NCBI GenBank assembly: GCA_040387495.1
Contig: JAZKDQ010000009.1
Location: forward strand, 1 to 64,000
Direction: 5' to 3'
DNA from: Pseudomonadota bacterium
Lineage (GTDB): Bacteria; Pseudomonadota; Alphaproteobacteria; Paracaedibacterales; CAIOTO01
DNA: 64,000 nt
Under the pieces are notes generated by a model. It was not told the DNA's origin and searched no databases. It saw only the letters and a program-made list of their open reading frames with translations. Position numbers and translations under genes: made by a program. Of this stretch, positions 30,701 through 62,029 are shown piece by piece. The number at the start of each line of letters is the position of its first letter. Position 1 is the stretch's first letter.

Positions 30701-32322
30701 TTAATTTCATGTAATACAAGATTCATGTTTGCAAGCACTGGTGTTATATTATTGCGGCTTTTAGCAAAGGTATCGTAGGCATTAAAAAGCCCGTAGCTTC
30801 CAATAACAACGAACATTCCAGTAATAATCTTTGCAGCTAGAATATTACGATTCAGCGACATCAAACGCTGACGCAGCGGCTTTGCTAGGCCAGGCTCATA
30901 CGCAATCTTTTTGGTAAACAAGTCATTTACATAAATCAGCTTAAGTTCACGGTTTTCATCCATAAGCGGCGGCGCATACACATCGTCCACCACAGGCGCA
31001 GCACCTTCAACTGTCTCTTTTGTCGATTCCAACCGAATCGTTTCAGGGTTAAATGGCAAAGGAATAACGGTAACATCATACGGATCTGTTATATCAGAAT
31101 CATATCCACGATCAAAAGCATCCGCTTTAAGGGGAATTGACGATAGGGCATCTATGCCTGCATCACCCGTGAAATACAATCCGCGAAACACAAAACCATC
31201 TTGATAAGATGACGGCTTAAACAATGAATTCACATAAAGTGACAGTGATTCTTTAAGTTTTGTAATTTCACTTGGAAAGACAAACACGCCATCATTGATT
31301 TCAAGATGAGCATTTAGCAGAGCGCCTGAATGTGCAAAAATATCAAGGCGATGCTGGTGCAGCTTATTTGAAATGGCAGCAAACGCTTCATCAATCCAAT
31401 TGTGCGAAAATGCCGTCGATAAACTATACGGATTAGACCAGCCAAACATATCTTGTCTATTCTTAAGCGGAATATGACGCGCGAAACTTTGAAAGCCCGG
31501 CACGCGATCTGTTTTCGTCACAACAACATAAACCGGTATACGAAGCCCAATCGATATTTGCGCCGCTGTTAATTTAGCTGCGATAAGTTCTGCACGTTGA
31601 TGAATTAGATCAAGTGATTCTTTGTTGCGACCATACAGTTCAGTCGCTGGAATCGTTAGAATAATCCCATTGATAGGACGCGCAGGCCGGTACCGCGTCA
31701 GCAATAGAATTAACGATCGCCATAGTTTTTCTTTTGATTTCAGCGCATCTTTTTGGATGAACAAATCACCCCGTGGCTCGATAAAGACGCCATTCGATAA
31801 GAACCACCACTTGCAATCTGGATTCGCTTTCCCTTTCGAAAAATCAGGTTTCCCCAACGGCAAATGCAACCCAGCATTTTCAAATAAGCTGGATTTTCCA
31901 GACCCTTCTGTACCCAACACAAGAAACCATGGCAGCTGATATTTATAGTTATAGGTGCGGACGGTTTCTTTCAAGAAAGACAGCGCCCTCAGAAAGGACA
32001 GACTTAAATTGCCAACACGAAAATACCCTTTACGTGACATAAACTCGCTAAACCAGCCACCAATGGGGGGCATGCGCTCAGTTTCGTCATACGGTGCATT
32101 ATGATCTTTAGCAGTCGCCGTCTCCTGCTCACGATTAATTTCTGTTCTTTTGTTTGAAATGTACATGATGTACAACAAAATCAACACAATCACAAGAATG
32201 CATATAAACAATAACCACAAGGTCAATGGCACAGACTGAAGGGTCGCCCGAATGCTATTAAGAAGCTGCCTAAAGGAATCCATAAAGCTACCTGCCATTG
32301 ACTCGCCGCCCCTCATATGCAT
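27739..32322 (-). CDS. tssM: T6SS membrane complex protein TssM/IcmF (long form)
   Basis: N-terminal TM, LPWFLVLGTEGSGKS, CKWW, RPARPINGIIL, VTKTD, FRGLYFTG; follows tssL. Confidence 0.88.
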   Translation of the reverse strand: MHMRGGESMAGSFMDSFRQLLNSIRATLQSVPLTLWLLFICILVIVLILLYIMYISNKRTEINREQETATAKDHNAPYDETERMPPIGGWFSEFMSRKGYFRVGNLSLSFLRALSFLKETVRTYNYKYQLPWFLVLGTEGSGKSSLFENAGLHLPLGKPDFSKGKANPDCKWWFLSNGVFIEPRGDLFIQKDALKSKEKLWRSLILLLTRYRPARPINGIILTIPATELYGRNKESLDLIHQRAELIAAKLTAAQISIGLRIPVYVVVTKTDRVPGFQSFARHIPLKNRQDMFGWSNPYSLSTAFSHNWIDEAFAAISNKLHQHRLDIFAHSGALLNAHLEINDGVFVFPSEITKLKESLSLYVNSLFKPSSYQDGFVFRGLYFTGDAGIDALSSIPLKADAFDRGYDSDITDPYDVTVIPLPFNPETIRLESTKETVEGAAPVVDDVYAPPLMDENRELKLIYVNDLFTKKIAYEPGLAKPLRQRLMSLNRNILAAKIITGMFVVIGSYGLFNAYDTFAKSRNNITPVLANMNLVLHEIKIDKKNSKHRTYRSADQFNLYTHQIVDMMMQLQKTDLFSIFVPASWFSHLNRDLHKSLKIAFQEIIIRSVANGLAVRAQELLYLRPTPDNFSQNITQLLLPLRSPEFLILQRYVNGLTDLSNHVAMFNSLRITGDPEHLRALIAYTFKCELPDDFWQQYKVFRNVLRETKLNPLHLETFQQVARETLDVLFQNFTNAIFSNQLPNSLPSRLNTFLASLSQQTTHQLPDLKYLREVSLQLAKTRPLIGDAGKSWLDQQYFRPGKELEILFDQIDTSRLFGKEVAQYLVDKAALGFAYLKLQLLALNAIVLSPKTTGPVAPLVAATADENNYPSKGILEIERCLSALLSESYMAAPTHFSFTTTTPKGKIIYWDPKMIDIAYDMSKAFEEFSGRKISTFPIVLQENLKLLARQSLQQNIVSLLSQAQNFVDLPESYSVNAAEEVLRAKISDFNASAPKFTKLLSILNKDAVGIAFADLRTLLVDNSFWLLDNVKKMLTVVNPYAVKDFSFSWWDGKPGAAFAGFAVRDSADLESYMTLQNQLIQRIALEFAKPIVMFLKSPVFTDGTEKQPVLRKWTRIVEQMERYSNRIPGNSVQNLQDFVTKDLALMDAKEILNHISIKELRGDSGDFFAETLLALKKGARSRAEILLRQKAITAYAKLALYFNQNLKGKFPFVTSNLSLVTEEADPESIREFYRLYNEAGGNTETILNQLHQLGSVMKNGTQFFKTLDTLKQFFGPYLDPSSGMPVPAFDFAVDFRANRSKESGADMVVDWVFKPNDITQINKNDKLKTGRWVFGNEVKFSFRWPDGAKIPAKPERDPAQPNLSIEGRTATYTFKGNWGLLWAMRMQDAVNEYGNAPNKPSPTLMKFSIPNGPSSKAVLFNSVSLTVPSLSAHTKGQVMRLPDFPAMAPELPAEGELYAERAVLTEGVVQGASNVNSTTGNAGNINTPTPASGTQNQKGKQSMVNPVMQSATQGAAQKPSQNPQQR

Positions 32323-33118
32323 GTCGCTTCATCGTCTGCGAGAAAATTGTATTCAAATCCCGATGCATTTCAAAGGCAATACGATACCAAACGACATACG
32401 ATATAAAGATATAAATCAAAAAAACACAAAGCCCATAAATGCCCCATGTTCTAAGATCTGGTAAACCGCGTCCAGGTGGTTCATTGAACGTATGATCGTA
32501 CGCTTCTTCAAAAAGCGCTTTTGTTGTATTTGTATTAAAAAGATGCGTGGGGTCTTGGCAGCACATTTGATACAACTGCTCTTGATACCAACGCACACGA
32601 TCTGACATGTCGTGATCGCGATATCGCCCGCGAAAACCAAGACTAAGTGCCATTAGATAAAGCTGACCTATTTCATAACGGCTCGCATCATGCGTATCAA
32701 ACAAAGCATCAATCTTTTTGAAAAACAACTCGCCAGCAATTTGTGTTTGAAATATTTGACCTTCTAGCAATGACTTCCGCCATTCTTTTGCTCCAGCCCA
32801 CGCTAAATTCAAGAACACCTCGTCCGCAAGCACAACCATAATATATTGCGCATCCTGAAAAAGCCCCGCACTGATGCCACCTGTTTTAGTTGCGTAGACG
32901 CCGCTTTGTACTTCTAAAAACGATTTAATGCGCGCTTGTATTTCATCAATGCGGTTAAAGGTTGCTTGCTCATGCAGTTCTGACTCAGCATGACGCGCAT
33001 CCCCTTCCCCATATCGTAGTGCACGCTCTTTCAAACGAAGAATTTCGTAATAAAATGCTTGAAAGCACTGCAACAATGGGCTGTTATTAAGACGAGATGT
33101 ACGCGTGTTTGTCATCAA
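32288..33118 (-). CDS. tssL: T6SS TssL/DotU
   Basis: LADEVFL, W...LLE, AGELFF, LSLGFRGRY, C-terminal TM. Confidence 0.9.
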   Translation of the reverse strand: MMTNTRTSRLNNSPLLQCFQAFYYEILRLKERALRYGEGDARHAESELHEQATFNRIDEIQARIKSFLEVQSGVYATKTGGISAGLFQDAQYIMVVLADEVFLNLAWAGAKEWRKSLLEGQIFQTQIAGELFFKKIDALFDTHDASRYEIGQLYLMALSLGFRGRYRDHDMSDRVRWYQEQLYQMCCQDPTHLFNTNTTKALFEEAYDHTFNEPPGRGLPDLRTWGIYGLCVFLIYIFISYVVWYRIAFEMHRDLNTIFSQTMKRHAYEGRRVNGR

Positions 33119-33191
33119 TGCTCGCCTCGTTCACTGTGTTTGCGTGTCTGTGGAATAATATAAAAATAATCAGAACACATACAAACCCCAT

Positions 33192-33252
33192 TAAAAATAG
33201 TTAAATTTTTATTAATTATGCGGGTTTTTAAGAATTAATTCAAGAAACAAGG
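33192..33252 (-). promoter_or_regulatory. Sigma70-type promoter of tssL-tssM with CtrA-type box (repeat copy A)
   Basis: Minus strand TTGAAT-17-CATAAT; TTAA-N7-TTAAC at 33200-33215; 38 bp identical to 34880-34917. Confidence 0.65.
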
Positions 33253-33401
33253 TGAAGTCTTCATATCATGCACAAAGGGTATAGGCGTTCCATATGCATT
33301 GAACTGTATATTCACGCAATCTCGACTTTCAAAGTCGAATTAACATGGTAAAAGTGATTATCCTCGCTCAAAAAAAGTCAAATTGAGGATATAATCTATT
33401 A

Positions 33402-33529
33402 TATAGAAGTTCAAGGGTAATTTGAGTATAAGGCGATCAAGGATCGAAGCACGGCATTTACAATTGTAAATGAGTACTGCAGATTTCCGTAGATCAACGC
33501 AATAATCAACTTATAATTGAATTGCTATA
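33402..33529. repeat. RPE-like palindromic miniature element (copy 1)
   Basis: Inverted ends TATAGAAGTTCAA/TTGAATTGCTATA, central CATTTACAATTGTAAATG; related copy at 39499. Confidence 0.65.
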
Positions 33530-34868
33530 CACTACCCTTTGTCTTCGGCACATAACACACAATCTCAACAGGACGACGATCATCCATATCCGATGGATTA
33601 AATATATTCAAATTTTGCTCTGGTATAATAAATTCTGAATCACACATCACTTCAACCACAATCATCCCACGGCCTGGCATAAGCTCAGACAAGGCTCCAC
33701 CATCAAGCAACCTACGTTTCGCCCCAGTAATGCGATGGCTACGCACCATTTCAATGGCAAAATCGCTGCAAATTACAGCATCCATTAACCACTCTTCTAT
33801 TTGAGAAGCCGTCATTCCTTTTGGTGCACGCAGGCCAATCAAAAACGTATTAGTCATATAATTCTTATGAAGCCGCAGATAAAACAAACGTTCTTGTTGT
33901 GAAAATGGAATAACCGCATAGCTTTGCTCAATCGTATTAAGATAATGCTTAAGCAGCTCTAACAAAGGTGCGAAACACCCTTGAATGTCATTGTGATTAT
34001 ATCCTGGCAAAATAGGCGGCAATTGCGATAAACGAAGCGATGCAAGATGCCCTGCCGTATCGCATATCTTCTGAAATAAAACATATGGGTTCGTTGCTGG
34101 AGCATTCAAAATTGTTTCTAACGCAGGCAGCGCCGTGATTAATGGCCTTAGCAACATTTCTGTTTCAACCATTAAAGGTGTGCCTATTTGATTTTGCCAC
34201 CGTTCGCTTAAATAAGTAGCTTTCTCGCGAATACGTTGTGCAAGTTCTGCGCATTGTTTCCATAAATGTGTGTCGTGCGTAATGTAAAAGCAAGGCGGTA
34301 CAAAAGGCGCACGGCCGTATGACTCATCAAATGCAATTTTCAAGATAGGAAAACCTTGGCAAAGCGCAGGCGCCTTATTACCCACACTTAAAATCAAACG
34401 TGGAAATAGTCGTGGAATCGAAATAACATTATCCGACATATTTTCATCTTTAACGGCATCACCCTCGATGGAAATAAATCGCGGAAAATCACCCGTTGTT
34501 GGTGATCTATCGCCGCTACGTTCAGGCATAGATAGAAAAATGGTAATTTCTTCACGTGCAGTTTCAGGTTGATAACCACGAATATCAAGTTCAAGCGGCG
34601 GGACCTTAGCCATATCAGACCGATAATTCACAATCAACCCGTCGGGCATAACCACTTCAAGTTCAAGGATGCGGACCAGCCCATCAGTAAGTGCTATTGG
34701 GTCCACATGCAAAATATTTACGCCCCAATGATGATTGGAAAGCAGGTGCAGCTGATGCGCTAAGTGTTGGTGGTGACGCAGTTCCATTTGCTGAAAATGC
34801 TGAGGAGTCAACATCATGCCTTCATGCCAATGAATATGCGGGACGATTGTAAGATGACGTGCAGACAT
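33525..34868 (-). CDS. tssK: T6SS baseplate TssK
   Basis: WHEGMMLTPQHFQQ, MPDG, FVPPC, YNHNDI..CF. Confidence 0.92.
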   Translation of the reverse strand: MSARHLTIVPHIHWHEGMMLTPQHFQQMELRHHQHLAHQLHLLSNHHWGVNILHVDPIALTDGLVRILELEVVMPDGLIVNYRSDMAKVPPLELDIRGYQPETAREEITIFLSMPERSGDRSPTTGDFPRFISIEGDAVKDENMSDNVISIPRLFPRLILSVGNKAPALCQGFPILKIAFDESYGRAPFVPPCFYITHDTHLWKQCAELAQRIREKATYLSERWQNQIGTPLMVETEMLLRPLITALPALETILNAPATNPYVLFQKICDTAGHLASLRLSQLPPILPGYNHNDIQGCFAPLLELLKHYLNTIEQSYAVIPFSQQERLFYLRLHKNYMTNTFLIGLRAPKGMTASQIEEWLMDAVICSDFAIEMVRSHRITGAKRRLLDGGALSELMPGRGMIVVEVMCDSEFIIPEQNLNIFNPSDMDDRRPVEIVCYVPKTKGSV

Positions 34869-34879
34869 GCGGACTCCAA

Positions 34880-34940
34880 TAAAAATAGTTAAATTTTTAT
34901 TAATTATGCGGGTTTTTTGTGATTAGTTCAAGAAACATGG
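34880..34940 (-). promoter_or_regulatory. Sigma70-type promoter of tssK with CtrA-type box (repeat copy B)
   Basis: Minus strand TTGAAC-17-CATAAT; TTAA-N7-TTAAC at 34888-34903. Confidence 0.65.
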
Positions 34941-35230
34941 TAGGAACAGCTTCACCTTAATATAAACACCATAAGAGAGCGAAGTCTTTTAATCTACGCT
35001 TAATTGTCACCCTATAAGCTGCCTTTCTCCAGCCATCACCTTGGTAACACATAAGGTGGTGACGTTAACCCCAATAAAATAATCGTATTTAAGGTTAAAC
35101 TATATGCGCCTGAAGACACGTAAGACCTGCTGCATAAGTCATCTTTTGCCATAAGGATTTCTGCTGCTGGTCAGATGAATAATCCGGCGTATCCAGGAGG
35201 TCTGCAATTTCTTTTAAAACAGGAGCTCTT

Positions 35231-37669
35231 TTAACAGCCTGGTTGCTTAACGTGTTCCTTCAACCCGGCCATACGGAGCTCTTCCGCGCGATATGACTCT
35301 TTTCCTTCAGGGGTTAGTATAAAATGTTTCATCAATAATATAAATTCATTCGACATTTCTACTTCACTTACGTTATCGTCCAACAAAATTTTCAAAAAAT
35401 CAGGAAATTTTTTTCCATTATAAAGACCGTCCTCATTCATAATTCTACCTGTTTCTTCAATCCCTCTACGCGCATAATCACATAATTTCTTCCCACAAGG
35501 ATTGTTAATGTTATCCTTCAATATATCTTGAAAATACATATTTATGACGTCCGTAGCCATCATCGTAGCCTGAGTTGCCTTTTTTGGTATTGCAATCGTT
35601 TTGCCGTCTTCAGTTTTAAAGGGCCGCTTGTAATGTCGTATCTCAAGGGGAGTATTTTCATCTATTACGATGTTAATAATCGCTGACCCAATGTGGGTTA
35701 CATCATCAAACGTTCCCTTTTGTGACTCATTCTCTTTCTTAAAATTCTCTTTGAGGTTATTAAGACTGTTTTTTCCCTGCTCAATCGCCATTGCAGGTGT
35801 TAAGCTTACCCCTTCGGGTGGATAAGCTCCTCTTAATTTAGCTGAATATACAACTCCAAATTTGTCCGTTACCGGGTGAAACATATTCCCATCAGGCATA
35901 GTCATAATCGTCTTTCTATTCCTCATATCACCCTTACATAAGGCCATAACGCGCGGCTTTGCCACTACTGGATGACTATTAGAAATCCTTTTTTCATATG
36001 AATAATTTTCATTATCTGCAAGTTTAGCAGAATTTTCTAATATTAGCTGTGTTCCACACCAAGCTGCAATAATTACATAATCAAAATTATTATCATAAAC
36101 TTCTTGCTTACCATCAATCATTCTAATTATTTTATAGTAGAAATTGTTATTTTTATCCTTATGAGAGGTCACCGCATGGACTTTGTAATTTGTTTGCAGT
36201 GTTATGTTTTCGGCTTTCTCTATTTCTCTTTTTAGAAGTATATCTCTTTTTAATACATTCATCGGTCTATCTTTAAACGATATAAATGCACTTTTTATTT
36301 TTGGGGAATTAACTTCTTCCGTCATTTCTTTTTTCAATTCATCTTGCGACTTACTCAAGTTACGTTTGATATCAGGTGTATCCCGTACTTCATAATACAT
36401 ATTTTTCGAAAGTCTTCGAGTCGCTTTTTGAGTTTCTTCATATAAAGGTTTATCTGAATTTTCATTTACTGCAAATATAACAGAAGGGTCCTGCTCAGGA
36501 GGAAAAAGTGTGGGGTACGTCTCAGCCAGATGACCTCCTCCTAGTCGGCAGCATAATGCTGATAGTGCATCAGTGGAGTATTCACTGCCTTTCCCATGGA
36601 CCAAAAATCCTGTTTTAGATGCTCCATCCATCGGATGTTCATCATCAGTAAATAATGTTGTATGCGATATAACACGAATGTCTTTATTAAACTGATTTTC
36701 CGTTTTTGATAAGTTATTGAATTGCAACCCAAGTGTCGTTCCTTCCAAGCCAGCGCCGATAACCGCAATCCGCTTTTTTATAACGTTACCTTTTTTAGTT
36801 GGGGTATTTTTAAAAGCAACATTAGGGTCGTAAGATGCTTTAGGTTTATTTTCTTTATTATCCAACGAAGATAAAGGTAGAAATGTTTCGATACTACTTT
36901 CACATCTAATTTTTCCTGGAACATTCGCAACTGATAGTTTATTGTTTCTATGCAAAAATGTTTCAAGACTAAGTCCGCGTTTAGTTTTTTCTGGCATACC
37001 AATATTAAAGGCAATTGCGTCAGCAACAGAAACTGGGCTTTTCAATAGCTCATAAGTGTCAAGAGTTTGTGAACGTCGACACGTATCTGGAACTTTAACA
37101 CTTGCAACCTTAGTTAATGCTGCAACAGTATTGGAATATAGCTGGCAATCTACGCCATCTATATTTGTATACTCATTATCATCATCCGAAGTTTCTTCTA
37201 GTTTTATAAACCCATTAGCAGAATTAATGCTGAACGCTCTTACAAGTGGTATTTTGCTTGCATCATTTTCCCCACAGATAAAACTTAGCACACTTGAACG
37301 ACCATCACTAACATCATCATTTAGAGCAACGCTCTCTTGGCATACATAATCAACAAGATCCTCATCGAGAATAGAACTTGATGAACTCAACAAATCTCTT
37401 TTAGCAAAAAATGGCTTCGGACTTGCCTTGTTAACGGCATTCGAACCAGTTGAGATTTCTTTTTCTTTAAGAGCTTCAAGGGTCTTAACGACACGTCTAT
37501 AATGGGGAGAATTTGAAGCTTTGGGAGACCTTCCAGAATTAGCAGCATCTAGTAAATCTATAATAACTTGTAAATTTGGATTAACAAGATGAAGCCCCTC
37601 TTTTGTTGAGGCAAAACTGCTTGATAACAACAAGATAAAGCATAATAGCGTATAGCACATATTTTTCAA
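35231..37669 (-). CDS. Secreted protein with FAD-dependent oxidoreductase-like domain
   Basis: Signal peptide; Ser-rich N-region; RIAVIGAGLEGTTLG Rossmann motif, GASKTG, FDYVIIAAW. Confidence 0.6.
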   Translation of the reverse strand: MKNMCYTLLCFILLLSSSFASTKEGLHLVNPNLQVIIDLLDAANSGRSPKASNSPHYRRVVKTLEALKEKEISTGSNAVNKASPKPFFAKRDLLSSSSSILDEDLVDYVCQESVALNDDVSDGRSSVLSFICGENDASKIPLVRAFSINSANGFIKLEETSDDDNEYTNIDGVDCQLYSNTVAALTKVASVKVPDTCRRSQTLDTYELLKSPVSVADAIAFNIGMPEKTKRGLSLETFLHRNNKLSVANVPGKIRCESSIETFLPLSSLDNKENKPKASYDPNVAFKNTPTKKGNVIKKRIAVIGAGLEGTTLGLQFNNLSKTENQFNKDIRVISHTTLFTDDEHPMDGASKTGFLVHGKGSEYSTDALSALCCRLGGGHLAETYPTLFPPEQDPSVIFAVNENSDKPLYEETQKATRRLSKNMYYEVRDTPDIKRNLSKSQDELKKEMTEEVNSPKIKSAFISFKDRPMNVLKRDILLKREIEKAENITLQTNYKVHAVTSHKDKNNNFYYKIIRMIDGKQEVYDNNFDYVIIAAWCGTQLILENSAKLADNENYSYEKRISNSHPVVAKPRVMALCKGDMRNRKTIMTMPDGNMFHPVTDKFGVVYSAKLRGAYPPEGVSLTPAMAIEQGKNSLNNLKENFKKENESQKGTFDDVTHIGSAIINIVIDENTPLEIRHYKRPFKTEDGKTIAIPKKATQATMMATDVINMYFQDILKDNINNPCGKKLCDYARRGIEETGRIMNEDGLYNGKKFPDFLKILLDDNVSEVEMSNEFILLMKHFILTPEGKESYRAEELRMAGLKEHVKQPGC

Positions 37670-39168
37670 ATCACAGGTTGCAGGGGTAAAAGAAATTTAA
37701 AAGTCGTACCGACATTTTCGCGAGAGATCACAGTAATTAAACCTCCATGATTTTCAACGATTTTTTTGCATAGGCTCAAACCAATGCCATGCGTGCTTCC
37801 TTCTGATTTAGAATGGAATTTTTTGAATGGTAAAAAAATTTCTTTATGATATTTTTTACTAATACCAATGCCGATATCCTTAATTTGGAATTCAACAAAG
37901 TTATTTTTTTCTTTCGCAGAGATGCTAATGATAGGCGGGCTTGAAGCCGCAGTAAACTTGATAGCATTGTTAATTAGATTTTGGAATAACTGCATAATTT
38001 GCAAGCGATCCGCATAAATTATAGGCATTTCATTAATAGCAATAACTGCATTCTTTTCTTGGATCTGAGAATCCAACATGGATAACACTTCTCTTATCAA
38101 ATCACTAGAAGAAAAGGATGACATTGAATTTGTACGTAGCCCACCGGATGAATACTCTAAAACGGATTTTATAAGTTTATCCATTCTTAATGTGCCTTCA
38201 TGAATAAGTTGCAAAAAGTGGTCAATATTTTCATTTTTTCCCTCTGCATGTTCATTCTTTAATAACTTAGAAAATGAGCTAATCGCACGCAGGGGCTCTC
38301 TTAATTCATGACAGCAAATATGGGCGAAACAGTCCAAATCACTATTAAGGTTTTTAAGTTTTTCAATAGCTTGCTCAAGATCATTTGTTTTTACTTCTAA
38401 CTGTTTTGTACGACTAGCGACTTTTCTTTTTAATTCGCTAGCATGCTTTTTTAATAGTCCTCTTGCTTTTTTGATTTCAGTAATATCTCGTATAATACCT
38501 ACTAAAATTTTACTTCCCGTTAATGTTCTGAAAACAGATTTCTTCGTGGATATTATTCGTGTTTTACCTGTGATCCCGGTAAAGTTTTCTTCATTTATTG
38601 TTGTTTTTTCCATTTTGAATGTTTTTCGATCAAGTTTGTAAAAAACTTCACTTTCTTGTGGGGTGAAAAAATCGCGATCACTTTTAAGATTAAGCTGCTC
38701 AACGGGATAGCCTAAGGCATTTGAAAACGCCTGGTTTACATAGGTCCAGCGGTGCAAATCATCTTTAACAAAAATGGGGTCAGAAACAGCGTCAATAATA
38801 TTTCTTAGCATCATATTTTCGTTATTTATTGCTGTATTATCAATTAACATCAGACTAAAATGATCATTTTCTAATGGTGCCAGATAACAAATAAAGTGAT
38901 AGATTTCGCCGTGTGCTTTCTTAATCTTCAAGGCACATGAAACTTTTTCTTTTGTTTCCTCAGCTTGAAAAAGATTTTCATTCAATTCTTTCAAACAATC
39001 CTGATCGATAAAAAAGAAAAGATTAGATTGGGTTAGACTAACTAATTTTTTAAATACAGTGTTTTCATAAACTATATCGCCATTTTTTTTAATGATAACA
39101 ACAGAGGATGGAAAATAATTCCCAAAATTTTCCCAGAATGAAGTGCTTTGAAACATTTTCTCACTCAT
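37666..39168 (-). CDS. Cytoplasmic PAS-PAS sensor histidine kinase
   Basis: PAS (DPIFVKD), H-box CHELREPL, NLINNAIKF, DIGIG, GIGLSLCK. Confidence 0.9.
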   Translation of the reverse strand: MSEKMFQSTSFWENFGNYFPSSVVIIKKNGDIVYENTVFKKLVSLTQSNLFFFIDQDCLKELNENLFQAEETKEKVSCALKIKKAHGEIYHFICYLAPLENDHFSLMLIDNTAINNENMMLRNIIDAVSDPIFVKDDLHRWTYVNQAFSNALGYPVEQLNLKSDRDFFTPQESEVFYKLDRKTFKMEKTTINEENFTGITGKTRIISTKKSVFRTLTGSKILVGIIRDITEIKKARGLLKKHASELKRKVASRTKQLEVKTNDLEQAIEKLKNLNSDLDCFAHICCHELREPLRAISSFSKLLKNEHAEGKNENIDHFLQLIHEGTLRMDKLIKSVLEYSSGGLRTNSMSSFSSSDLIREVLSMLDSQIQEKNAVIAINEMPIIYADRLQIMQLFQNLINNAIKFTAASSPPIISISAKEKNNFVEFQIKDIGIGISKKYHKEIFLPFKKFHSKSEGSTHGIGLSLCKKIVENHGGLITVISRENVGTTFKFLLPLQPVI

Positions 39169-54885: not shown

Positions 54886-55773
54886 ATGGATAAAATGAAA
54901 TTGAAAAGAGCTTTTTTAATTGCAATAACAACATGCACTATTAGTGCCCCAATTTTTACTATGACAGATACGGCAGTAAATGAAACAAACTCATTAGGAC
55001 TACAAGCAGCACTAGTGGCTCATGAACACTCCTATATAGAATTACTTGATACTCTTGCGCTATCTAAGGAAGCCGTTATACCTAAACACATCATTGCAAC
55101 CGAAGCTGAGCTTAGATGCAGAGCATACATTAACGCGATGCATGCTTTATTTACAACTTATCCAGATCACGAGTTAGTTGTGGATTTCGAGGCGGCTAAG
55201 AGGGTGAATGATTATTTTGGGTATTTGCCTAATGGGTATTTTCCTGATCATTACCCCATACTTCCTTCTTCCCTTCGTAACATCTCAATTGTGGGTGAAA
55301 ACCTCACAATCGTCGGAGATGAGTTTCTTACGCGCACATGCCTGAGATCCGTCACGATATCAAACGGCGTCACAACTATTAGAAATAATTTTCTCATGTA
55401 TGGCAGCCTGAGATCCATCGCAATCCCAAACAGCGTCACAACGATTGGAGATCGTTTTCTCTGGAATTGTCCATTTGTGACCTCTGTCACGATACCAAAC
55501 GGCGTCACAACCATTGGGACGTATTTCCTCCACAATTGCTCAGGCCTGACATCAGTCACGATCCCAGACAGCGTTACAACCATTGGGGATTTTTTCCTCA
55601 CCTATTGCCTAAGTCTGACATCAGTCACGATCCCAAGAAGATTCCAGGACTCTGTCCGTCATCTTCCAAGTACGGTTCAGATTATTTTTAATAACGACAT
55701 GGGAACGTTAGAAAATAATGACATAGGAACGTTAGAAATTGACAAAAACCTTGGCAGGAATGACGCTATCTAA
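54886..55773 (+). CDS. Secreted BspA-type (LRR_5) protein
   Basis: Signal peptide; 23-aa repeats LTSVTIPxxVTTIGxxFLxxC. Confidence 0.85.
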   Translation: MDKMKLKRAFLIAITTCTISAPIFTMTDTAVNETNSLGLQAALVAHEHSYIELLDTLALSKEAVIPKHIIATEAELRCRAYINAMHALFTTYPDHELVVDFEAAKRVNDYFGYLPNGYFPDHYPILPSSLRNISIVGENLTIVGDEFLTRTCLRSVTISNGVTTIRNNFLMYGSLRSIAIPNSVTTIGDRFLWNCPFVTSVTIPNGVTTIGTYFLHNCSGLTSVTIPDSVTTIGDFFLTYCLSLTSVTIPRRFQDSVRHLPSTVQIIFNNDMGTLENNDIGTLEIDKNLGRNDAI

Positions 55774-56345
55774 GCAGCGCCTTTAAGAGTAATCTCGCTC
55801 AGATTCTTCTGCAGCGTATCGATCTGTTTTTTAAGACTTGCGTCAACCCGCAAGTTCTCAGCCTGAATGACAACACCACCCAGCAAATCAGGAATTGATT
55901 CATATTCATAATCAATTCTCTTGCCAAACATGGAAAACACCTGTGCTTGAATTTTCTTTTTTTGCAACATCGTTGGCATAGTCGGCACTGAAATGCGCGC
56001 CATCATGCGGTTCTCGGCGTGATTATAACAGCTTTCAAATACATCAATAATTTCTTTAAAAATCGACAAACGTTGACGGCTATGCAGTATTTGATAGAAA
56101 TGAACAAGATACTTTGGCCATTCTAATTTAGTTGCGATAGTCGCCAGAAAATCAGCAAATTCCTGTTCTTTGAAAAATGGCAGCGTCTTTTTGACATCCA
56201 TATCTTGAAGACATGCACGATCAAACTCTTTTAGTTTTTCCAGTATTGAAAACGTTTCGTTTTGCTCGGAAGCAACCTCGAACAATGCGCGCGCGTATCG
56301 CCCTGGAATCGATGTTTGAAGACCTTTTAAAAGTGCTATATCCAT
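55770..56345 (-). CDS. atpH: ATP synthase F1 delta
   Basis: RYARALF, LLGGVVI...DASLKKQI. Confidence 0.92.
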   Translation of the reverse strand: MDIALLKGLQTSIPGRYARALFEVASEQNETFSILEKLKEFDRACLQDMDVKKTLPFFKEQEFADFLATIATKLEWPKYLVHFYQILHSRQRLSIFKEIIDVFESCYNHAENRMMARISVPTMPTMLQKKKIQAQVFSMFGKRIDYEYESIPDLLGGVVIQAENLRVDASLKKQIDTLQKNLSEITLKGAA

Positions 56346-56358
56346 GATTTCTTTTGCT

Positions 56359-56374
56359 TTAACTGTTTGTTAAC
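56359..56374 (+). promoter_or_regulatory. CtrA-type box upstream of atpH
   Basis: TTAACTGTTTGTTAAC. Confidence 0.35.
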
Positions 56375-56654
56375 ATCTTATCTTTATTAATAGCATATTT
56401 GAATGAATAGAGACAAGTCATACGGGATCATTACAGGTATGTTAAAAATTCTAGCCTACAATATTCCATATATGACAACAATTATGAATAGTAATGCCCT
56501 TCACGTTATAAGCTATGGCATTCAATAAACCACATCACCTTGGATGCTCTCAGTAGCATTCAATTTTAATAGCCCCCCCCCTAAATCACATTACGTCCCG
56601 GTGAAGCTATAGAAACTCTTGCTTAGAACGCCTAAAAAGACTTATGCAGAGAGT

Positions 56655-56855
56655 CTAATGAATTCTTTTTGAAAGTATAGATTGCGGATCAAAAAGGTCA
56701 TTGATTTTTATGCCGGAATTCATTGAAAAATTTACAAGTGCAAAGTCAGCGGTTTCTTCTGGTAAGTCTGCATCCAATAAAAGCTGATGTGCCATTTTCT
56801 CTTGTGACATTAAGATGGCCAATTCGTTCTTGTTAATAAAGTTTGTAATGTTCAT
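56655..56855 (-). CDS. Small hypothetical protein divergent from the luxR pair
   Basis: 66 aa, GAGAG RBS, ATG start. Confidence 0.45.
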   Translation of the reverse strand: MNITNFINKNELAILMSQEKMAHQLLLDADLPEETADFALVNFSMNSGIKINDLFDPQSILSKRIH

Positions 56856-57167
56856 AACTGATCTCTCATATAATTTTTAATTTAGTTAGCTATTCCAATT
56901 TCATCAAAACTTAAATATTAAAAAAAATTTTAAGTAATAAATATTCTTATACATATTTTATTTGCTTATATCAACATATTTTTTTGCAATATACACTATT
57001 TTATTTTCCAAGTGTAATTAAATTGTATTTTGAAAGTTGGATGCATAAATGAAAGAATATTAGAAAAATCATGCAGTTTCAACTAATATTATTTTAGTTA
57101 TTTTGAAATATATGTTATTTTTCATTTGCATTTAAAAATTGGAGATGCTAAATAGATTTTAGTTTAC

Positions 57168-57719
57168 ATGTGGTGGAACTATGTAGTGAATGTTTCTTGC
57201 AATTTTAAATACAATATTATATTAGATTCTTTGCGTAATGCAGATTCTATGAATAATTTAAATTCAACGTTCAAAAGTATTTGTGGATATTATGATATTG
57301 AAAAATTTGCCTTGAGTGAGCTTATTGGTATTAGAAATAAAAAGATGAATTTTAGCCTTTATTCAACCTACCCAGCTGAATGGACGCAGCATTATCAAAA
57401 AGAAAATTATCATCAGTTTGATCCCGTTTTCTTAAATATTGGGAAAATCCAGTTGCCATTTTTTTGGAATAGTAATTCTTTTAAGAAAATGAATTATCAT
57501 CAAAAAAAGGTTTTCACTGAGGCATATGATTTTAATATAACGTATGGAACCACAATTCCATTGGCACCTGAGGGGAATCGGCACGCGTATCTTACTATCT
57601 TAAATGCAGAGGTTGCAAAAAGTTGGCCAATGATGAATAAATTAGCCCTTGCCGCAAATATGTATTATTCGAGAAAGAGTTATTTTGAGTTCATAGAATT
57701 TAGGAAATTAATTAGTTAA
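57168..57719 (+). CDS. LuxR-type autoinducer-binding-domain-only protein (no HTH)
   Basis: YPAEW..HY....Y...DPV, PFFW, EAYDF; ends where the HTH would begin. Confidence 0.85.
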   Translation: MWWNYVVNVSCNFKYNIILDSLRNADSMNNLNSTFKSICGYYDIEKFALSELIGIRNKKMNFSLYSTYPAEWTQHYQKENYHQFDPVFLNIGKIQLPFFWNSNSFKKMNYHQKKVFTEAYDFNITYGTTIPLAPEGNRHAYLTILNAEVAKSWPMMNKLALAANMYYSRKSYFEFIEFRKLIS

Positions 57720-57736
57720 TAATTTGGAGTTTTGCT

Positions 57737-58453
57737 TTGTTAATACTTTCGAAATATCAAATAAATGGCCTATTGGAAGACATGTTTTGCGCAGACTCAG
57801 CGGATTCGTTGCAGTGTTCGTTGAAAAAATTATGTGGTGAATACTTTATTGATACTTTTGCGCTTGCTGCATTAACGGGACTTCGTAATGCAGAAGCTGC
57901 CTTTGATGTGTTTGATAATTACCCAATTGTATGGAAAAAACGATATATTGAGAAAAAGCATTATTTAAACGATCCAGTTTTTTCCGATTTAAACAAAACA
58001 AACCTTCCTTTTTGCTGGAATGTTGAAAAATTTAAAGATATAACAAAAAACCAAGAAAAATTTCTTTATGAAGCACATGATTTTGGAGTAAATGTTGGAA
58101 CAACCATTCCTTTATTGCCAGATGGAAAATTTAACGGCTTTATAACGTTACTTGGTGCAAATATTCATCATCCGGAGCTCTTATATATATTTTCCCTGGC
58201 TGCTAATTTTTATCTAAAACAAAAGAAGCATTTTGATTTGCAACAGCAGTTCAAATCATTAACTAAACAAGAAATGAAAGTATTGTTACTAAAGGCAGAT
58301 GGCCTCAGCGTTAAAATAATTTCTTCAGAATTGCACTTGTCAGATGCTACAGTTATTTTTCATTTAAAGAACCTAAGAAAGAAATTAAATTCAGTTACCA
58401 CTGAGCAAGCTATTTTTAAATTTGGTTTAGCACGTGGAGATAATTTTTTGTAG
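57737..58453 (+). CDS. luxR: LuxR-family quorum-sensing regulator
   Basis: YPIVW..RY, DPV, FCW, EAHDFG plus HTH LTKQE...DGLS..IS..L.LS..TV.FHL.N.RKKL. Confidence 0.9.
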   Translation: MLILSKYQINGLLEDMFCADSADSLQCSLKKLCGEYFIDTFALAALTGLRNAEAAFDVFDNYPIVWKKRYIEKKHYLNDPVFSDLNKTNLPFCWNVEKFKDITKNQEKFLYEAHDFGVNVGTTIPLLPDGKFNGFITLLGANIHHPELLYIFSLAANFYLKQKKHFDLQQQFKSLTKQEMKVLLLKADGLSVKIISSELHLSDATVIFHLKNLRKKLNSVTTEQAIFKFGLARGDNFL

Positions 58454-58458
58454 GTGTA

Positions 58459-59118
58459 TTAGGGAAGAGTCAGTGATGTGTGGAGCGAAGTATGAATGTT
58501 GAAATCATTCGCATTATTGCTTAGTTTGTTTATTTTCAGACTTTTTGCTATCTTATCGTAAACATGGCTCATTGGCTGAAATGCCCAAACATCTATGTCC
58601 TCCTGATTAATCTTTGCGGAAGAAACTACATATGTAAGTAATCCATATTTCTTGCACAGTTTTGTTAAAGATGGATAAGTCAGTGTTAAGAAGCACTCTA
58701 CTCTTTCAATAGTTAATCCAAAATCTATTAATCCAGCCATGATAGATTTTGCAACTTTTTGGTGCATATGCACCTTGTAGTCTTCGCTTGCACTAATATC
58801 CACAGAATATCGACTTAATTCCCAATATCCTGGCCGTTTAAATTCATCAAGGTTAGGCAGCGTAAATTTAAAGGGTCCATCAAACATACAATCATTGATC
58901 ATTTCAACAAAGCGTATGCAACCACGAATAATTCCGTTGTCATCTTTGTATATTAAATAATACATATTTTTTTCGTCATATTGATCACGTTCCATCCCGT
59001 TTTCAACAGAAACATCCCATTTAAGACTTTCATAAAAAACACGATAACGTAGACGATACATACTATCAAGGTCTTGCCGATAGAGATCATATTCTCCTGG
59101 TTGAATCAGATACAACAT
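58459..59118 (-). CDS. luxI: Acyl-homoserine-lactone synthase
   Basis: RLRYRVF...LKW...ERDQYD, GCIRF, WELSR. Confidence 0.92.
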   Translation of the reverse strand: MLYLIQPGEYDLYRQDLDSMYRLRYRVFYESLKWDVSVENGMERDQYDEKNMYYLIYKDDNGIIRGCIRFVEMINDCMFDGPFKFTLPNLDEFKRPGYWELSRYSVDISASEDYKVHMHQKVAKSIMAGLIDFGLTIERVECFLTLTYPSLTKLCKKYGLLTYVVSSAKINQEDIDVWAFQPMSHVYDKIAKSLKINKLSNNANDFNIHTSLHTSLTLP

Positions 59119-59222
59119 ATTAGCTTCCCTTAATTATATGTACTTCAATATTTTATATAGTTCGAAATAAATATATTTCAATGCCTATTCAATATTAATA
59201 TCGAATAAATTAAATTATAAAT

Positions 59223-59242
59223 AGCTATCAAATATGATAGGT
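59223..59242 (-). promoter_or_regulatory. lux box upstream of luxI
   Basis: Minus strand ACCTATCATATTTGATAGCT, 20-bp dyad. Confidence 0.75.
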
Positions 59243-59375
59243 TAATACAAAATTTATTATGTTGATGTATAATTCACTTTTTCTTAATGATAAATGTTAA
59301 TATTTTGTAATTTAATAATTACAATTTACAATGATGATATTTAAAATATTCTTATAAAAGGAGTTTTAGTCAAAA

Positions 59376-59395
59376 ACCTATTATATTTGATAGGT
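59376..59395 (+). promoter_or_regulatory. Second lux box facing the PAS kinase
   Basis: ACCTATTATATTTGATAGGT, 18/20 identical to the inverted first box; ACCT-N12-AGGT. Confidence 0.75.
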
Positions 59396-59766
59396 TGTTC
59401 ATGATCAGAAAAGAGTGTAGAAATCCTTTATCAACCAATCAGAAAAAGATATTTTTGTGTCAGAAAAAAACAAAAATTCAACTTACAAAGCAACAAGCAC
59501 GCAAACATCAAGAGATAGTGCTCAGGAGTCCTTATTTTCGACTCTTAGTTTTTTAAATACATTACTAATAAAAAAATTAATTAAAAACGAATCATTTTCT
59601 GGGTGTTGTATTGATTTAACACGCATAGAACATTTTGCGTGTTCGAGGAATTTAATCGAAAAGCTATTTTTATAAGATAAATATTAAAACTAACGAGCAT
59701 CATGCTTATTGTCTTTTGAAATATTAGCATGTGAATTTCTTTTAGAAGGTTTTTGAAATAGTTTTT

Positions 59767-60914
59767 ATGGGATGCAAAAAAATGGCAACGATCGCAAACA
59801 ATGAAATTAAAATGAATAAAGAAGAACGTTTGTTGGCAAGTGTCATAATGCACGCGCCCACGCCGGTTGCCTTGTTTGATACACACATGCGTTGTTTGAA
59901 TGTGAGCAGCGTATGGGCTAAAGAATTAGGATTTGGTGCAGATGTAGAATTTATAGGCAAATCACACCATGATGTTTTTCCTAAGCAACTAATCCAGCAC
60001 CAAGACATATATGCAGAATGTTTAAAAGGAAGTCCTTACAGAGGAAGAAAAAAATACATTGTACCTATAAATGATAAACACATTTTGTTGGCAATGAGCA
60101 TTACTCCATGGAAAAATGCCGATGACTCAGTTGGGGGGCTTATTGTATATGTAAATGAGTTATCCGAAAGAAATGAGTCAACTGTTCATATTAATGAAAT
60201 GATAAATAATTTGAAGCGCTCAAATGTAGAACTAGAATGTTTTGCATATGTTTGCTCACACGACTTAAAAGAGCCTCTACGAAATATATCGTGTTTTATA
60301 CAACTTTTACTGAAACATAATTCAGCTTGTTTTGATGAAATATCGATTAATTACATTGGGCATGTTTTAAAAGGTGTTGACCGTATGTGCTCATTGATTA
60401 AAAACATTCTTTTATATTCACGTGTATCTACACAAAATATAATTACGGTATTGTTGATATAAATAGTGTTTTAGATGACGTGAAAAAGAATTTAATGTTT
60501 AAATTACAAGAAGCAAAAGCAGAAATTCATATTGCTGAAATGCCGAATATCATAGGGAACACGACTCAAATCAATCAACTTTTTGCAAATTTAATTGATA
60601 ACGCAATCAAGTATAAATCAGATCAGCCTTTAATTATTGATATTTCTGCTAGAGATACAGGATCATTGTGGGAAATAAGTATCAAAGATAATGGAATTGG
60701 TATTGCAGAAGAACATCAGTCAAATGTTTTTAACATGTTTAAACAACTGGATAGCAGAACTCATTGTGATAGTTCTGGCGTAGGTCTTGCCATATGTAAG
60801 AAAATTGTGAAGGCTCATGATGGAGATATCTTTGTCCGATCAAATTCTGCCGGAGGTTGTGATTTTGTATTCACTTTGCCAAAAATAAGTAAAATGAAAA
60901 ATGCAGCAACGTGA
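59767..60914 (+). pseudogene. PAS-HisKA-HATPase kinase split by a frameshift near 60434-60437
   Basis: H-box SHDLKEPLR in ORF1; NLIDNAIKY, DNGIG, GVGLAICK in ORF2; adding one A to the CAAAAT run fuses them. Confidence 0.8.
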
Positions 60915-60991
60915 ATGTATTTTTTTGTTAATCAAAATTTAGCAAGTTTAATGACATAATAAACCATGTAATAAATTCATACATGTATTAA

Positions 60992-62029
60992 ATGACCATC
61001 ACTTTTGACATCGAACAGAAAAATCTATTACGCGACATTCAGCGTCATTTAGCGGTAATGTGCGCAGATGGCTTCCGAAAATCTGTGTTGTCATTATTCT
61101 CACACAAATCTGCACGTAGTGGCATTTATATATATGGCGATGTTGGCCGGGGCAAGACAACGCTTGTGAGACATGTGTTTGATCAAGTGCACGTTACCAA
61201 GCAACGCTATCATTGTGATACTTTTTTTGCAGAACTCCACCGCGCGTTACAGTCACAAGACATCGACTCACTTGCCCATAACATTCAGCATAAATATCGC
61301 ATGATTTGGATTGATGAATTGCAAATCTATGATGTAGCGACAGCGATGTTGTTGCGTCGCTTAATTCCTGCATTAGTTGAACTTCATGTGATTGTGTTAA
61401 TGACCGGCAATATTGCGCCTGATGATTTTTATAAAGGTGGGCTAAACCGCGAACAATTTAGTGATTTTATCTCATATTTCTGCAGGCATTTTCATTGCCT
61501 GGCGTTGGATGGAGCGCTGGATTATCGATTGCAGCAAAAGGCTAGCCAAGATAATACAAGCGCAGAAAAGCTGTGTCATTTCTGGCTAGCATCACCAGCA
61601 GCAACAGTGGCAATGGAAAATATATTTAATGCCTTTGCAGTTGAATCTATTGCGCAAAATGGTATCCCTACAAAAATGCCCCCTTCACCCTTTACATTGC
61701 AGCTTAAGCATCGGACGTGGGTACTTGCTAAAACACATGCCAAGGCGGCCTTTATTGATTTCTCCTCACTCGCTCAAACGAGTTGTGCCTTTGATGACTA
61801 TCGGGCGCTGGTTCAAGAATTCCCTACGATTTTTGTGACGGATGTGCCGATCTTTAATCACACAAACAGAGACGCCTGCCGGCGGTTTATGGCATTTATT
61901 GATATTATGTATGATGGCGGGGCAGAACTTTACATGTCAGCACACAGAGCACCAGCTGAACTGTATCAAGATTCAGGGCAGAAATTGCCTTTTGCACGCA
62001 CGGCTTCGCGCTTGGCTGAGATTTTGTGA
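60992..62029 (+). CDS. zapE: AFG1-family ATPase ZapE
   Basis: GIYIYGDVGRGKT, IDE, YKGGLNRE, DYR, RRFMAFIDIMYD, RTASRL. Confidence 0.9.
   Translation: MTITFDIEQKNLLRDIQRHLAVMCADGFRKSVLSLFSHKSARSGIYIYGDVGRGKTTLVRHVFDQVHVTKQRYHCDTFFAELHRALQSQDIDSLAHNIQHKYRMIWIDELQIYDVATAMLLRRLIPALVELHVIVLMTGNIAPDDFYKGGLNREQFSDFISYFCRHFHCLALDGALDYRLQQKASQDNTSAEKLCHFWLASPAATVAMENIFNAFAVESIAQNGIPTKMPPSPFTLQLKHRTWVLAKTHAKAAFIDFSSLAQTSCAFDDYRALVQEFPTIFVTDVPIFNHTNRDACRRFMAFIDIMYDGGAELYMSAHRAPAELYQDSGQKLPFARTASRLAEIL

Follow-up and report, generated by a model that had tools for sequence, protein, structure and literature searches.

The window analysed here, the whole 64,000-nucleotide stretch at positions 1–64000 of contig C9 of the genome under study (G000; 1,661,299 bases, 20 contigs, 39.3% guanine plus cytosine (GC), 99.92% complete, 0.07% contamination), contains a locus that we consider likely to be a LuxI/LuxR-type acyl-homoserine lactone (AHL) quorum-sensing system. 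It would belong to a lineage private to Holosporales/Paracaedibacteraceae-type bacteria and is carried on an AT-rich island of 4.6 kb within a host-dependent genome. Judging from its genes and their conserved residues, the LuxI/LuxR locus is probably functional.

The locus occupies positions 57168–60914, where Pfam assigned families to five open frames. The first gene, luxR1 (57168..57719, plus strand), encodes a protein of 183 amino acids (aa) that matches the autoinducer-binding domain Autoind_bind only (PF03472, 81.4 bits) and lacks a helix-turn-helix (HTH) domain. It is followed on the same strand, after a gap of 17 bp, by luxR2 (57737..58453, plus strand), whose 238-aa product is a full LuxR-type receptor/regulator with both Autoind_bind (PF03472, 70.8 bits) and the GerE HTH domain (PF00196, 49.0 bits). 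The AHL synthase gene luxI (58459..59118, minus strand; 219 aa) and luxR2 converge, with 5 bp between their stop codons, and the two remaining frames hold the PAS_4 plus HisKA and the HATPase_c parts of a histidine kinase. This luxI is the sole LuxI gene of G000, and luxR1 and luxR2 account for its only Autoind_bind matches. An earlier note, made by inspection of the sequence alone, had described a low-GC block with an HTH-less luxR, a luxR and a convergent luxI; the Pfam assignments and the base composition confirmed all of these elements where it had placed them.

The luxI product is a LuxI-type AHL synthase by domain, residues and fold, and it is predicted to produce an AHL. Its PF00765 score of 102.7 bits compares with a curated cut-off of 24. 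The residues R, F, W, E, D, D, R, F, E and R define the LuxI family; in the alignment of 19 LuxI homologues of the order, R24, E43, D45, D48, R69, F83, E100 and R103 do not vary and W34 hardly varies, whereas F28 is invariant among the 14 closest homologues. The conservation of the R/F/W/D/R/E residues that had been claimed from the single sequence is thus borne out by both alignments. A profile built from the 19 order homologues matched LasI with E = 3e-31. Furthermore, the AlphaFold model of the protein (predicted local distance difference test, pLDDT, 87.1; predicted template modelling score, pTM, 0.83) retrieved AHL synthases at all of ranks 1–12 of its matches in the PDB (TofI, MesI, LasI, BjaI, RpaI and EsaI), LasI with a TMt score of 0.82. 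The model resembles enzymes that use acyl carrier protein (acyl-ACP) and those that use acyl-coenzyme A (acyl-CoA) about equally, and the fold does not tell the two apart.

The threonine in the FLTLT motif, placed by eye in the earlier note at a position that we take to be tied to 3-oxo-AHL preference, was recovered at that position by alignment. In the strand C142–T147 (CFLTLT), the profile alignment to solved chains pairs T145 with T140 of EsaI and T142 of LasI, and T147 with T144 of LasI. The second threonine position varies within the LuxI clade, being occupied by T, S, A or G. Published structural descriptions count the EsaI and LasI threonines among the active-site residues.

Both receptors retain a complete ligand pocket. 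The six pocket residues of LuxR proteins, in TraR numbering, are W57, Y61, D70, P71, W85 and G113, according to the report on the Cereibacter sphaeroides Cer system (PMC11655674). They correspond to W72, Y76, D85, P86, W100 and G127 in LuxR1 and to W66, Y70, D79, P80, W94 and G121 in LuxR2. The luxR2 gene starts with TTG preceded by GGAG, and the best solved relatives of its product are RhlR, QscR and LasR. The PF03472 match of LuxR1 spans profile positions 6–147 of 149, with no GerE domain; from an alignment with protein P0001, the true start of luxR1 may be the GTG at 57186. The LuxR1 model (pLDDT 85.0) shows a whole ligand-binding domain that closes in a long helix, and it resembles the ligand-binding domains of LasR, CviR, QscR, SdiA and TraR, with TMt values of up to 0.77 (LasR).

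The possibility that LuxR1 is a fresh truncation of LuxR2 was considered and rejected, since the two proteins share 36% identity and fall in separate clades. An exhaustive HMMER search for LuxR1 relatives over 1.84 billion cluster representatives yielded 661 matches at E ≤ 0.001; among the best 24 of these 661, 13 lack GerE and 11 possess it, although contig ends may have cut some of the short relatives in the library. In a tree computed on shared columns, LuxR1 falls in a nine-row clade (support 97) whose rows are all HTH-less, and which includes an 88-aa remnant situated just upstream of luxR in the congeneric genome G001 (locus L021). This clade has 24 invariant columns, the pocket residues among them. 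Short proteins of family f2 (one in locus L028, two in L030) form a separate clade with support of 98, mixed with full-length receptors and apart from the LuxR1 clade, which indicates that the HTH domain was lost at least twice. A short HTH-less receptor adjoining a full LuxR is also found in L028 (one copy) and L030 (two copies), and as a remnant in L021. Throughout the order, 24 of the 65 Autoind_bind matches lie in stop-to-stop frames shorter than 200 aa, five of them being strong (E ≤ 1e-17) and distributed over four genomes (G000, G010, G012 and G021).

Two further observations concern the same domain. LuxR-type ligand-binding domains are expanded in some order genomes of 1.5–1.9 Mb (11 in G012, 7 in G036, 6 in G021 and 4 in G025), and five LuxI-less genomes of genus g3 (G011, G014, G017, G020 and G023) each contain one weak Autoind_bind frame of 158–176 aa.

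Two characterised HTH-less receptors offer an analogy: CerN modulates CerM and TrlR modulates TraR, and LuxR1 most probably acts on LuxR2 in a corresponding way. In the C. sphaeroides system, cerN (HTH-less), cerM, cerR and cerI are neighbours, CerN together with AHL binds CerM and impairs its DNA binding, and CerM and CerN share 31% identity (PMC11655674). The locus in the window resembles CerI/CerR/CerM/CerN in being alphaproteobacterial and in the order HTH-less LuxR, full LuxR and LuxI; CerN and LuxR1 both keep the WYDPWG pocket, and both are old paralogues of their partner, with 31% identity there and 36% here. The differences are that a single full LuxR is present here against two in the Cer system, that luxI is convergent here and co-oriented there, that the first residue of the pocket is W in LuxR2 and F in CerM, and that the host genome here is reduced and carries tlc. 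TrlR, encoded on octopine-type Agrobacterium Ti plasmids, has no DNA-binding domain, and the heterodimers that it forms with TraR are inactive (PMC13043044); it is 88% identical to TraR according to the Cer report (PMC11655674). TrlR is a recent truncation, whereas LuxR1 is a member of an old dedicated HTH-less clade; moreover, no TraM-type anti-activator was recognised in this locus. On these precedents and the gene order, LuxR1 would bind the same AHL as LuxR2 and form mixed dimers with it in the style of CerN–CerM and TrlR–TraR, and it would thereby set the threshold of the response or reverse it.

Alternatively, LuxR1 may not be a mixed-dimer antagonist at all, being instead an AHL sink or buffer, a co-activator, or the receptor of a different ligand, host-derived or foreign, acting through another partner. 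We regard this as a less probable role that nevertheless deserves serious attention. It would accord with a pocket that is complete in a protein only 36% identical to LuxR2, with the abundance of short Autoind_bind frames in the order, and with the nine genomes that have the domain without LuxI. Against it stand the position of luxR1, which precedes luxR2 on its strand at a distance of 17 bp, and the AHL-dependent binding of a full-length partner by both characterised HTH-less LuxR proteins, as reported in the publications on them. Modulation of LuxR2 is consequently retained as the role that LuxR1 most likely plays.

The intergenic region between luxI and the kinase gene contains two 20-bp lux-box-like dyads, which the earlier note had mentioned without coordinates and which we located at 59223..59242 (box A, AGCTATCAAATATGATAGGT, one mismatch to ACCTAT-N8-ATAGGT) and 59376..59395 (box B, ACCTATTATATTTGATAGGT, exact ACCTAT-N8-ATAGGT). 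The boxes are identical at 18 of 20 positions in inverted orientation and lie 153 bp apart, and the near edge of box A is 104 nucleotides upstream of the luxI ATG. Throughout the genome, ACCTAT-N8-ATAGGT has one exact site (box B), four sites with one mismatch and 49 with two, that is, only five sites with at most one mismatch in 1.66 Mb. At up to two mismatches, sites in the window are not above chance (3 found against 1.72 expected; 30 of 100 shuffles reach 3).

The recurrence of the box in relatives was assessed by searching for the 20-mer within 450 bp upstream of luxI in 11 loci, with 300 shuffles per locus. Matches of 19/20 in L029 and 18/20 in both L024 and L025 were not reached by any of the 300 shuffles; the match of 16/20 in L021 was reached by 2 of 300, and those of 15/20 in L020 and L026 by 7 and 17 of 300, respectively. 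In L024, L025 and L029, the box sits between luxI and a divergent HATPase_c gene, as it does in G000. From their position and their conservation in relatives, boxes A and B are candidate operators of LuxR2, and the LuxR2–AHL complex would recognise both dyads. Box A ends 20 nucleotides from a -10-like GATATT on the luxI strand, a spacing that we take to be the class-II geometry of the Vibrio fischeri lux promoter; with box A at this position, luxI would be subject to positive autoregulation.

The reach of the putative regulator appears narrow. A weight matrix built from the boxes ranked box A as the best site of the genome (31.2 of a possible 31.8) and box B as the second, and only four strong sites were found in G000, namely the two boxes, a site at C14:73040 immediately 3' of a Tn3-like transposase gene, and C1:12216, the last one inside an open reading frame (ORF). 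The third-best box-like site (ACCCATCATTTTTGATAGGT) lies 41 bases past the stop codon of the Tn3-like transposase. The region C14:73040-76908 contains the 1008-aa ORF of this transposase together with a serine recombinase gene. With no more than these four strong sites, neither a wide regulon nor direct control of type VI secretion is supported.

The link to the type VI secretion system suggested in the earlier note is therefore not supported at the level of binding sites: the genome-wide weight-matrix scan found no lux-box site near the type VI secretion genes, which carry CtrA-type boxes instead. TssM, TssL and TssK are encoded in the window at 27739–34868 and TssC on another contig, whereas VirB4 was not found in G000. 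An identical CtrA-type TTAA-N7-TTAA box (TTAAATTTTTATTAA) occurs at 33201–33215, 83 bp upstream of tssL/tssM, and at 34889–34903, 21 bp upstream of tssK. Additional TTAA-N7-TTAA sequences lie at 34989 and at 56359, the latter just upstream of atpH. No CtrA-type box was found in the quorum-sensing promoters, and the count of these boxes in the window (8 against 5.2 expected) is not above chance.

The PAS histidine kinase had been counted as part of a complete module. That description stands for the synthase, the LuxR receptor, the candidate operators and the HTH-less receptor, but not for the kinase, which is frameshifted in the assembled sequence (a feature that the earlier note did not mention) and is one of six paralogues, and is therefore not a clean part of the quorum-sensing module. 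Its N-terminal part, with PAS_4 and HisKA, lies at 59767..60462 (plus strand) in a frame that closes with TAA, and its C-terminal part, with HATPase_c (90.5 bits), at 60438..60914 (plus strand) in another frame; the called ORF is 60480–60914 and the frame is open from at least 60438. The H-box CSHDLKEPL is present, and no single uninterrupted frame covers the domains. An alignment to the five intact paralogues puts the change of frame between ...YSRVSTQN and YNYGIVDINS, that is, a single frameshift near 60434–60440. These paralogues, of about 650 aa (PAS, PAS, HisKA, HATPase), are encoded at C10:44220-52105 (three in tandem), C4:65770-66855 and C8:109074-110159, and they share 38–43% identity with the N part of the kinase and 42–51% with its C part. 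The kinase beside luxI lacks the first ~290 residues of the paralogues, and no decayed 5' part of the long form was found upstream of 59767. A search of a large protein collection found no near-identical intact kinase, the best match being a 400-aa protein with the same three domains at 36% identity, which indicates that the short form is a natural architecture. The kinase beside luxI would thus be a short and frameshifted copy in a family of six, probably in decay.

A loose connection between this quorum-sensing lineage and a two-component pair is nonetheless recurrent. In L024, L025 and L029, a gene for an HTH_3-receiver regulator adjoins luxR and a HATPase_c gene is divergent from luxI; the G001 quorum-sensing locus has a kinase fragment and an HTH_3-receiver regulator nearby; and the G000 homologue of that regulator (53% identity) is encoded on C10, next to the tandem array of three kinases. 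Two side observations concern kinases. Protein P0153, a histidine kinase from eukprot, a source of eukaryote proteomes, shares 58% identity with the N-terminal part of the kinase beside luxI across 32% of its length, and it may come from a related bacterium present in a protist data set. In the window, 37666–39168 (minus strand) encodes an intact 500-aa PAS histidine kinase, a more distant paralogue, which adjoins an 812-aa ORF without a family and lies ~2.8 kb from tssK.

AHL systems had been regarded as atypical for genomes of this type, and their commonness in the clade had been named in the earlier note as an observation that would speak against its view. Counting one genome per species, we found LuxI in 20 of the 62 genomes of the order (18 of the 49 high-quality ones) and in 9 of its 20 genera, so that the supposed rarity does not hold and the objection named in the earlier note largely applies. 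In an even sample of the class with completeness of at least 90%, 63 of 301 genomes possess LuxI, and AHL circuits are hence no less frequent in this order than across Alphaproteobacteria as a whole; one LuxI-positive genome of this sample (G092) is flagged unpublished. Every one of the 20 LuxI-positive order genomes also has Autoind_bind, as do nine without LuxI (29/62 in total).

A scan based on alignments and covering one genome for each species recovered LuxI relatives with 39–64% identity in 13 loci (L020–L032), whereas a contig scan with the LuxI sequence alone found no relative. The records of these relatives are titled Candidatus Paracaedibacteraceae, Holosporales, Alphaproteobacteria or Pseudomonadota. 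Those of L024, L029 and L025 bear the titles 'uncultured Candidatus Pelagibacter sp.' and 'Chlorobiaceae bacterium', which look misassigned, one of them being the same-family genome G008; all three carry luxI–luxI–luxR loci of this LuxI clade. The LuxI and LuxR phylogenies proposed in the earlier note as a check resolved an order-specific LuxI clade alongside the HTH-less clade of LuxR1. In the maximum-likelihood LuxI tree (38 rows; support by the Shimodaira–Hasegawa-like approximate likelihood-ratio test, SH-aLRT), the 19 rows of order families f1–f4 form one order-specific clade with support of 99, and the LuxI proteins of f8 and f10 fall in another. The LuxI of the window groups (support 95) with the second tandem luxI of G001 (same genus), G008 (same family) and L025. 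Its best identity in a collection of 5.8 billion proteins is 58%, and the G001 homologues have already been named acyl-homoserine-lactone synthase by NCBI. A recent arrival from outside the order was rejected, because the best identity is 58% and the nearest rows of the tree belong to the same genus and family.

The quorum-sensing genes reside in a block of 4646 bp (56346..60991; 30.6% GC) delimited by atpH, for the ATP synthase delta subunit (55770..56345, minus strand; PF00213, 108.8 bits; 64% identity to atpH of G001), and by a gene for an AFG1/ZapE-like ATPase (60992..62029, plus strand; PF03969, 197.4 bits). Windows of 1 kb across 57001–61000 have 28.8–33.1% GC against the genome value of 39.3%, and the block is the lowest in GC of the genome, none of 3148 equal-sized windows being as low. 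GC at third codon positions is 23–30% in five frames of the block against 39–41% in the flanking genes. In G001, atpH, atpA and atpG are consecutive, AFG1 is divergent and ~270 bp from atpH, and the quorum-sensing locus is on another contig than atpH and AFG1. The block is therefore probably an inserted island. AFG1 relatives occur in 9 of 10 family genomes; in G003 the neighbours of AFG1 are an OmpA-family gene and nuoB/nuoA, and in G005 only AFG1 was matched. Moreover, the quorum-sensing genes exceed their flanks in AT content at 9 of 10 loci of relatives. No tRNA, Rfam match, flanking direct repeat or integrase was found in the block, and a scan of it for σ70 promoters and terminators was uninformative.

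The block also contains an orphan ORF of 66 aa (56655..56855, minus strand), perhaps not a true gene. Pfam and NCBIfam assigned it no family, tblastn gave no relative in the genome or in the loci of relatives, and a structure-atlas search returned no usable match. On the other side of atpH, a BspA-type leucine-rich-repeat gene (54886–55773, plus strand; PF13306, 86 bits) lies on the opposite strand between atpH and atpA; as these two genes abut in G001, it represents a second insertion into the ATP synthase operon. The stretch is present in two DNA runs, both watershed metagenomes, with word shares of 1.00 and 0.61, and there was no RNA run among those listed as containing it.

Several observations weigh against a functional quorum-sensing locus of a private lineage on an inserted island. 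LuxI is patchy: 3 of 10 family genomes carry it, as do 2 of 7 in the genus when G000 is counted. The separate frames of HisKA and HATPase_c point to some decay in the block. The box upstream of luxI is not above chance in 5 of the 11 loci (L022, L023, L027, L028 and L030); additionally, L024 and L029 belong to one genome and L025 to a near relative, which reduces the footprint of the box to two or three independent lineages of the family. Promoter-like hexamers found in the block by the σ70 scan number 26 against 27.7 in shuffles, so that the spacing of GATATT carries little weight. The inference of insertion comes from one of three congener loci examined (G001). Finally, the proteins of the locus reach no NCBIfam equivalog cut-off (e.g. 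74 bits against 292 for TraI), and they are therefore not equatable with any named system, nor are substrate and signal nameable.

Some of these observations would also be expected if the locus were a decaying remnant, inherited or acquired, that is unused in a shrinking genome and is being lost. The frameshift of the neighbouring kinase and its shortness relative to the paralogues, the 88-aa remnant to which the HTH-less gene is reduced in G001, the absence of LuxI from 7 of 10 family genomes and the lowest GC of the genome all agree with such a fate. We nevertheless consider it improbable, given that luxI, luxR1 and luxR2 are full-length open frames with all defining residues intact, that the operator is kept across genera of the family, and that the HTH-less clade preserves 24 invariant columns including the pocket. 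A functional LuxI/LuxR locus with a probably decaying kinase at its side remains the reading that we prefer.

The description of the organism as an apparent intracellular symbiont was upheld by genome content (tlc genes, no metK found, a size of 1.66 Mb, a type VI secretion system and a Holosporales congener), and is well supported on that basis. Among the tlc ATP/ADP translocase genes of G000, two are intact, one is interrupted by an in-frame TAA and one is a fragment. The gene with the in-frame TAA, the second of two tandem tlc genes (C8:54749-56164), is possibly a pseudogene. The tlc family is present in 59 of 62 order genomes, in all 49 high-quality ones and in none of 14 control genomes; 19 of the 20 LuxI-positive genomes of the order carry it, the exception being 72% complete. 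Searches with PF02773 and PF02772 did not find metK in G000, whereas 10 of the 14 controls match, and FabF/B is present in G000. Since metK was not found, S-adenosylmethionine, the LuxI substrate, would need to be imported, probably from the host. LuxI would accordingly make its AHL from acyl-ACP and probably host-imported S-adenosylmethionine. The NCBI lineage of the congener G001, whose locus is identical to L021, is Holosporales, Ca. Paracaedibacteraceae. In L020 (5593–7838), L023 (5508–7581) and L031 (989–3065), all three from another family of the order, luxI is followed by genes for a sodium:dicarboxylate symporter and an EamA-family transporter. The EamA family includes the S-adenosylmethionine importer of Rickettsia.

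A free-living organism using ordinary planktonic quorum sensing is very unlikely in our judgement. G000 and its close relatives are known from environmental assemblies only, with no host identified, as would be expected of such an organism. It is opposed by the presence of tlc here and in 49 of 49 high-quality order genomes against 0 of 14 controls, by the failure to find metK in a genome that is 99.92% complete, and by the host association of all characterised Holosporales, as stated in a 2025 review of the group (PMC11909080). That the block stems from another bacterium through an error of binning or assembly is hardly credible: although its GC lies 9 points under the genome mean and the assembly resembles a metagenome bin (20 contigs, with its DNA in watershed-metagenome runs), the block is situated inside a 72-kb contig between core genes syntenic with the congener, the trees place its LuxI and LuxR1 with those of the same genus and family, relatives likewise have quorum-sensing loci that are AT-rich against their flanks in 9 of 10 cases, and the estimated contamination is 0.07%.

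Compared with other known systems, the locus combines familiar and distinct features. In V. fischeri, luxR and luxI are divergent, a 20-bp dyad lux box lies upstream of luxI, and LuxI/LuxR drive luxI autoinduction; in another arrangement, esaI and esaR are convergent. The locus in the window likewise has a 20-bp dyad upstream of luxI, and autoinduction of luxI is expected, but it differs from V. fischeri lux in its private box ACCTAT-N8-ATAGGT, in having two boxes 153 bp apart and in the convergence of luxR and luxI. SogI/SogR of Sodalis glossinidius constitutes an AHL quorum-sensing system in an insect endosymbiont (PMC2568817). The present case resembles it as AHL quorum sensing in a lineage that, judging from its genes, lives inside a eukaryotic host. 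Sodalis is a culturable gammaproteobacterium with a large, recently host-restricted genome, whereas the genome studied here bears tlc, lacks a recognisable metK and has a distinct LuxI clade.

The locus is ordinary for its order, yet no description of it was found in print. The words quorum, autoinducer, LuxI and LuxR are absent from the 2025 review of Holosporales (PMC11909080), and these words and homoserine are absent from a comparative genomics paper on amoeba symbionts (PMC5751055). When the open-access literature was searched by taxon together with AHL or LuxI vocabulary, none of the papers listed dealt with quorum sensing in Holosporales. What is new is the setting, the clade-specific LuxI and operator, and the conserved family of HTH-less receptors.

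A broader proposal, which we put forward tentatively and regard as doubtful, is that AHL quorum sensing is a long-standing, hitherto undescribed trait of tlc-bearing, protist-associated Paracaedibacteraceae/Holosporales. It would have its own LuxI clade, operator and HTH-less receptors, would move within the order on AT-rich islands, and would use a signal derived from host S-adenosylmethionine to sense density or confinement inside a single eukaryotic cell. If this were true, AHL output would report jointly the number of symbionts per host compartment and the metabolic state of the host, with the HTH-less receptor determining where the response switches. The locus offers a small set of tractable parts, namely one synthase, one receptor, one putative receptor of dominant-negative type and a 20-bp candidate operator. 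Moreover, the idea derived from CerN and TrlR, two isolated examples, is widened by the HTH-less clade to cover a conserved family of proteins. Discussions of quorum sensing mostly concern free-living or facultative bacteria; the occurrence of LuxI/LuxR in 20 of 62 genomes of a tlc-bearing order suggests that cell-to-cell or confinement signalling may be a regular part of the intracellular lifestyle.

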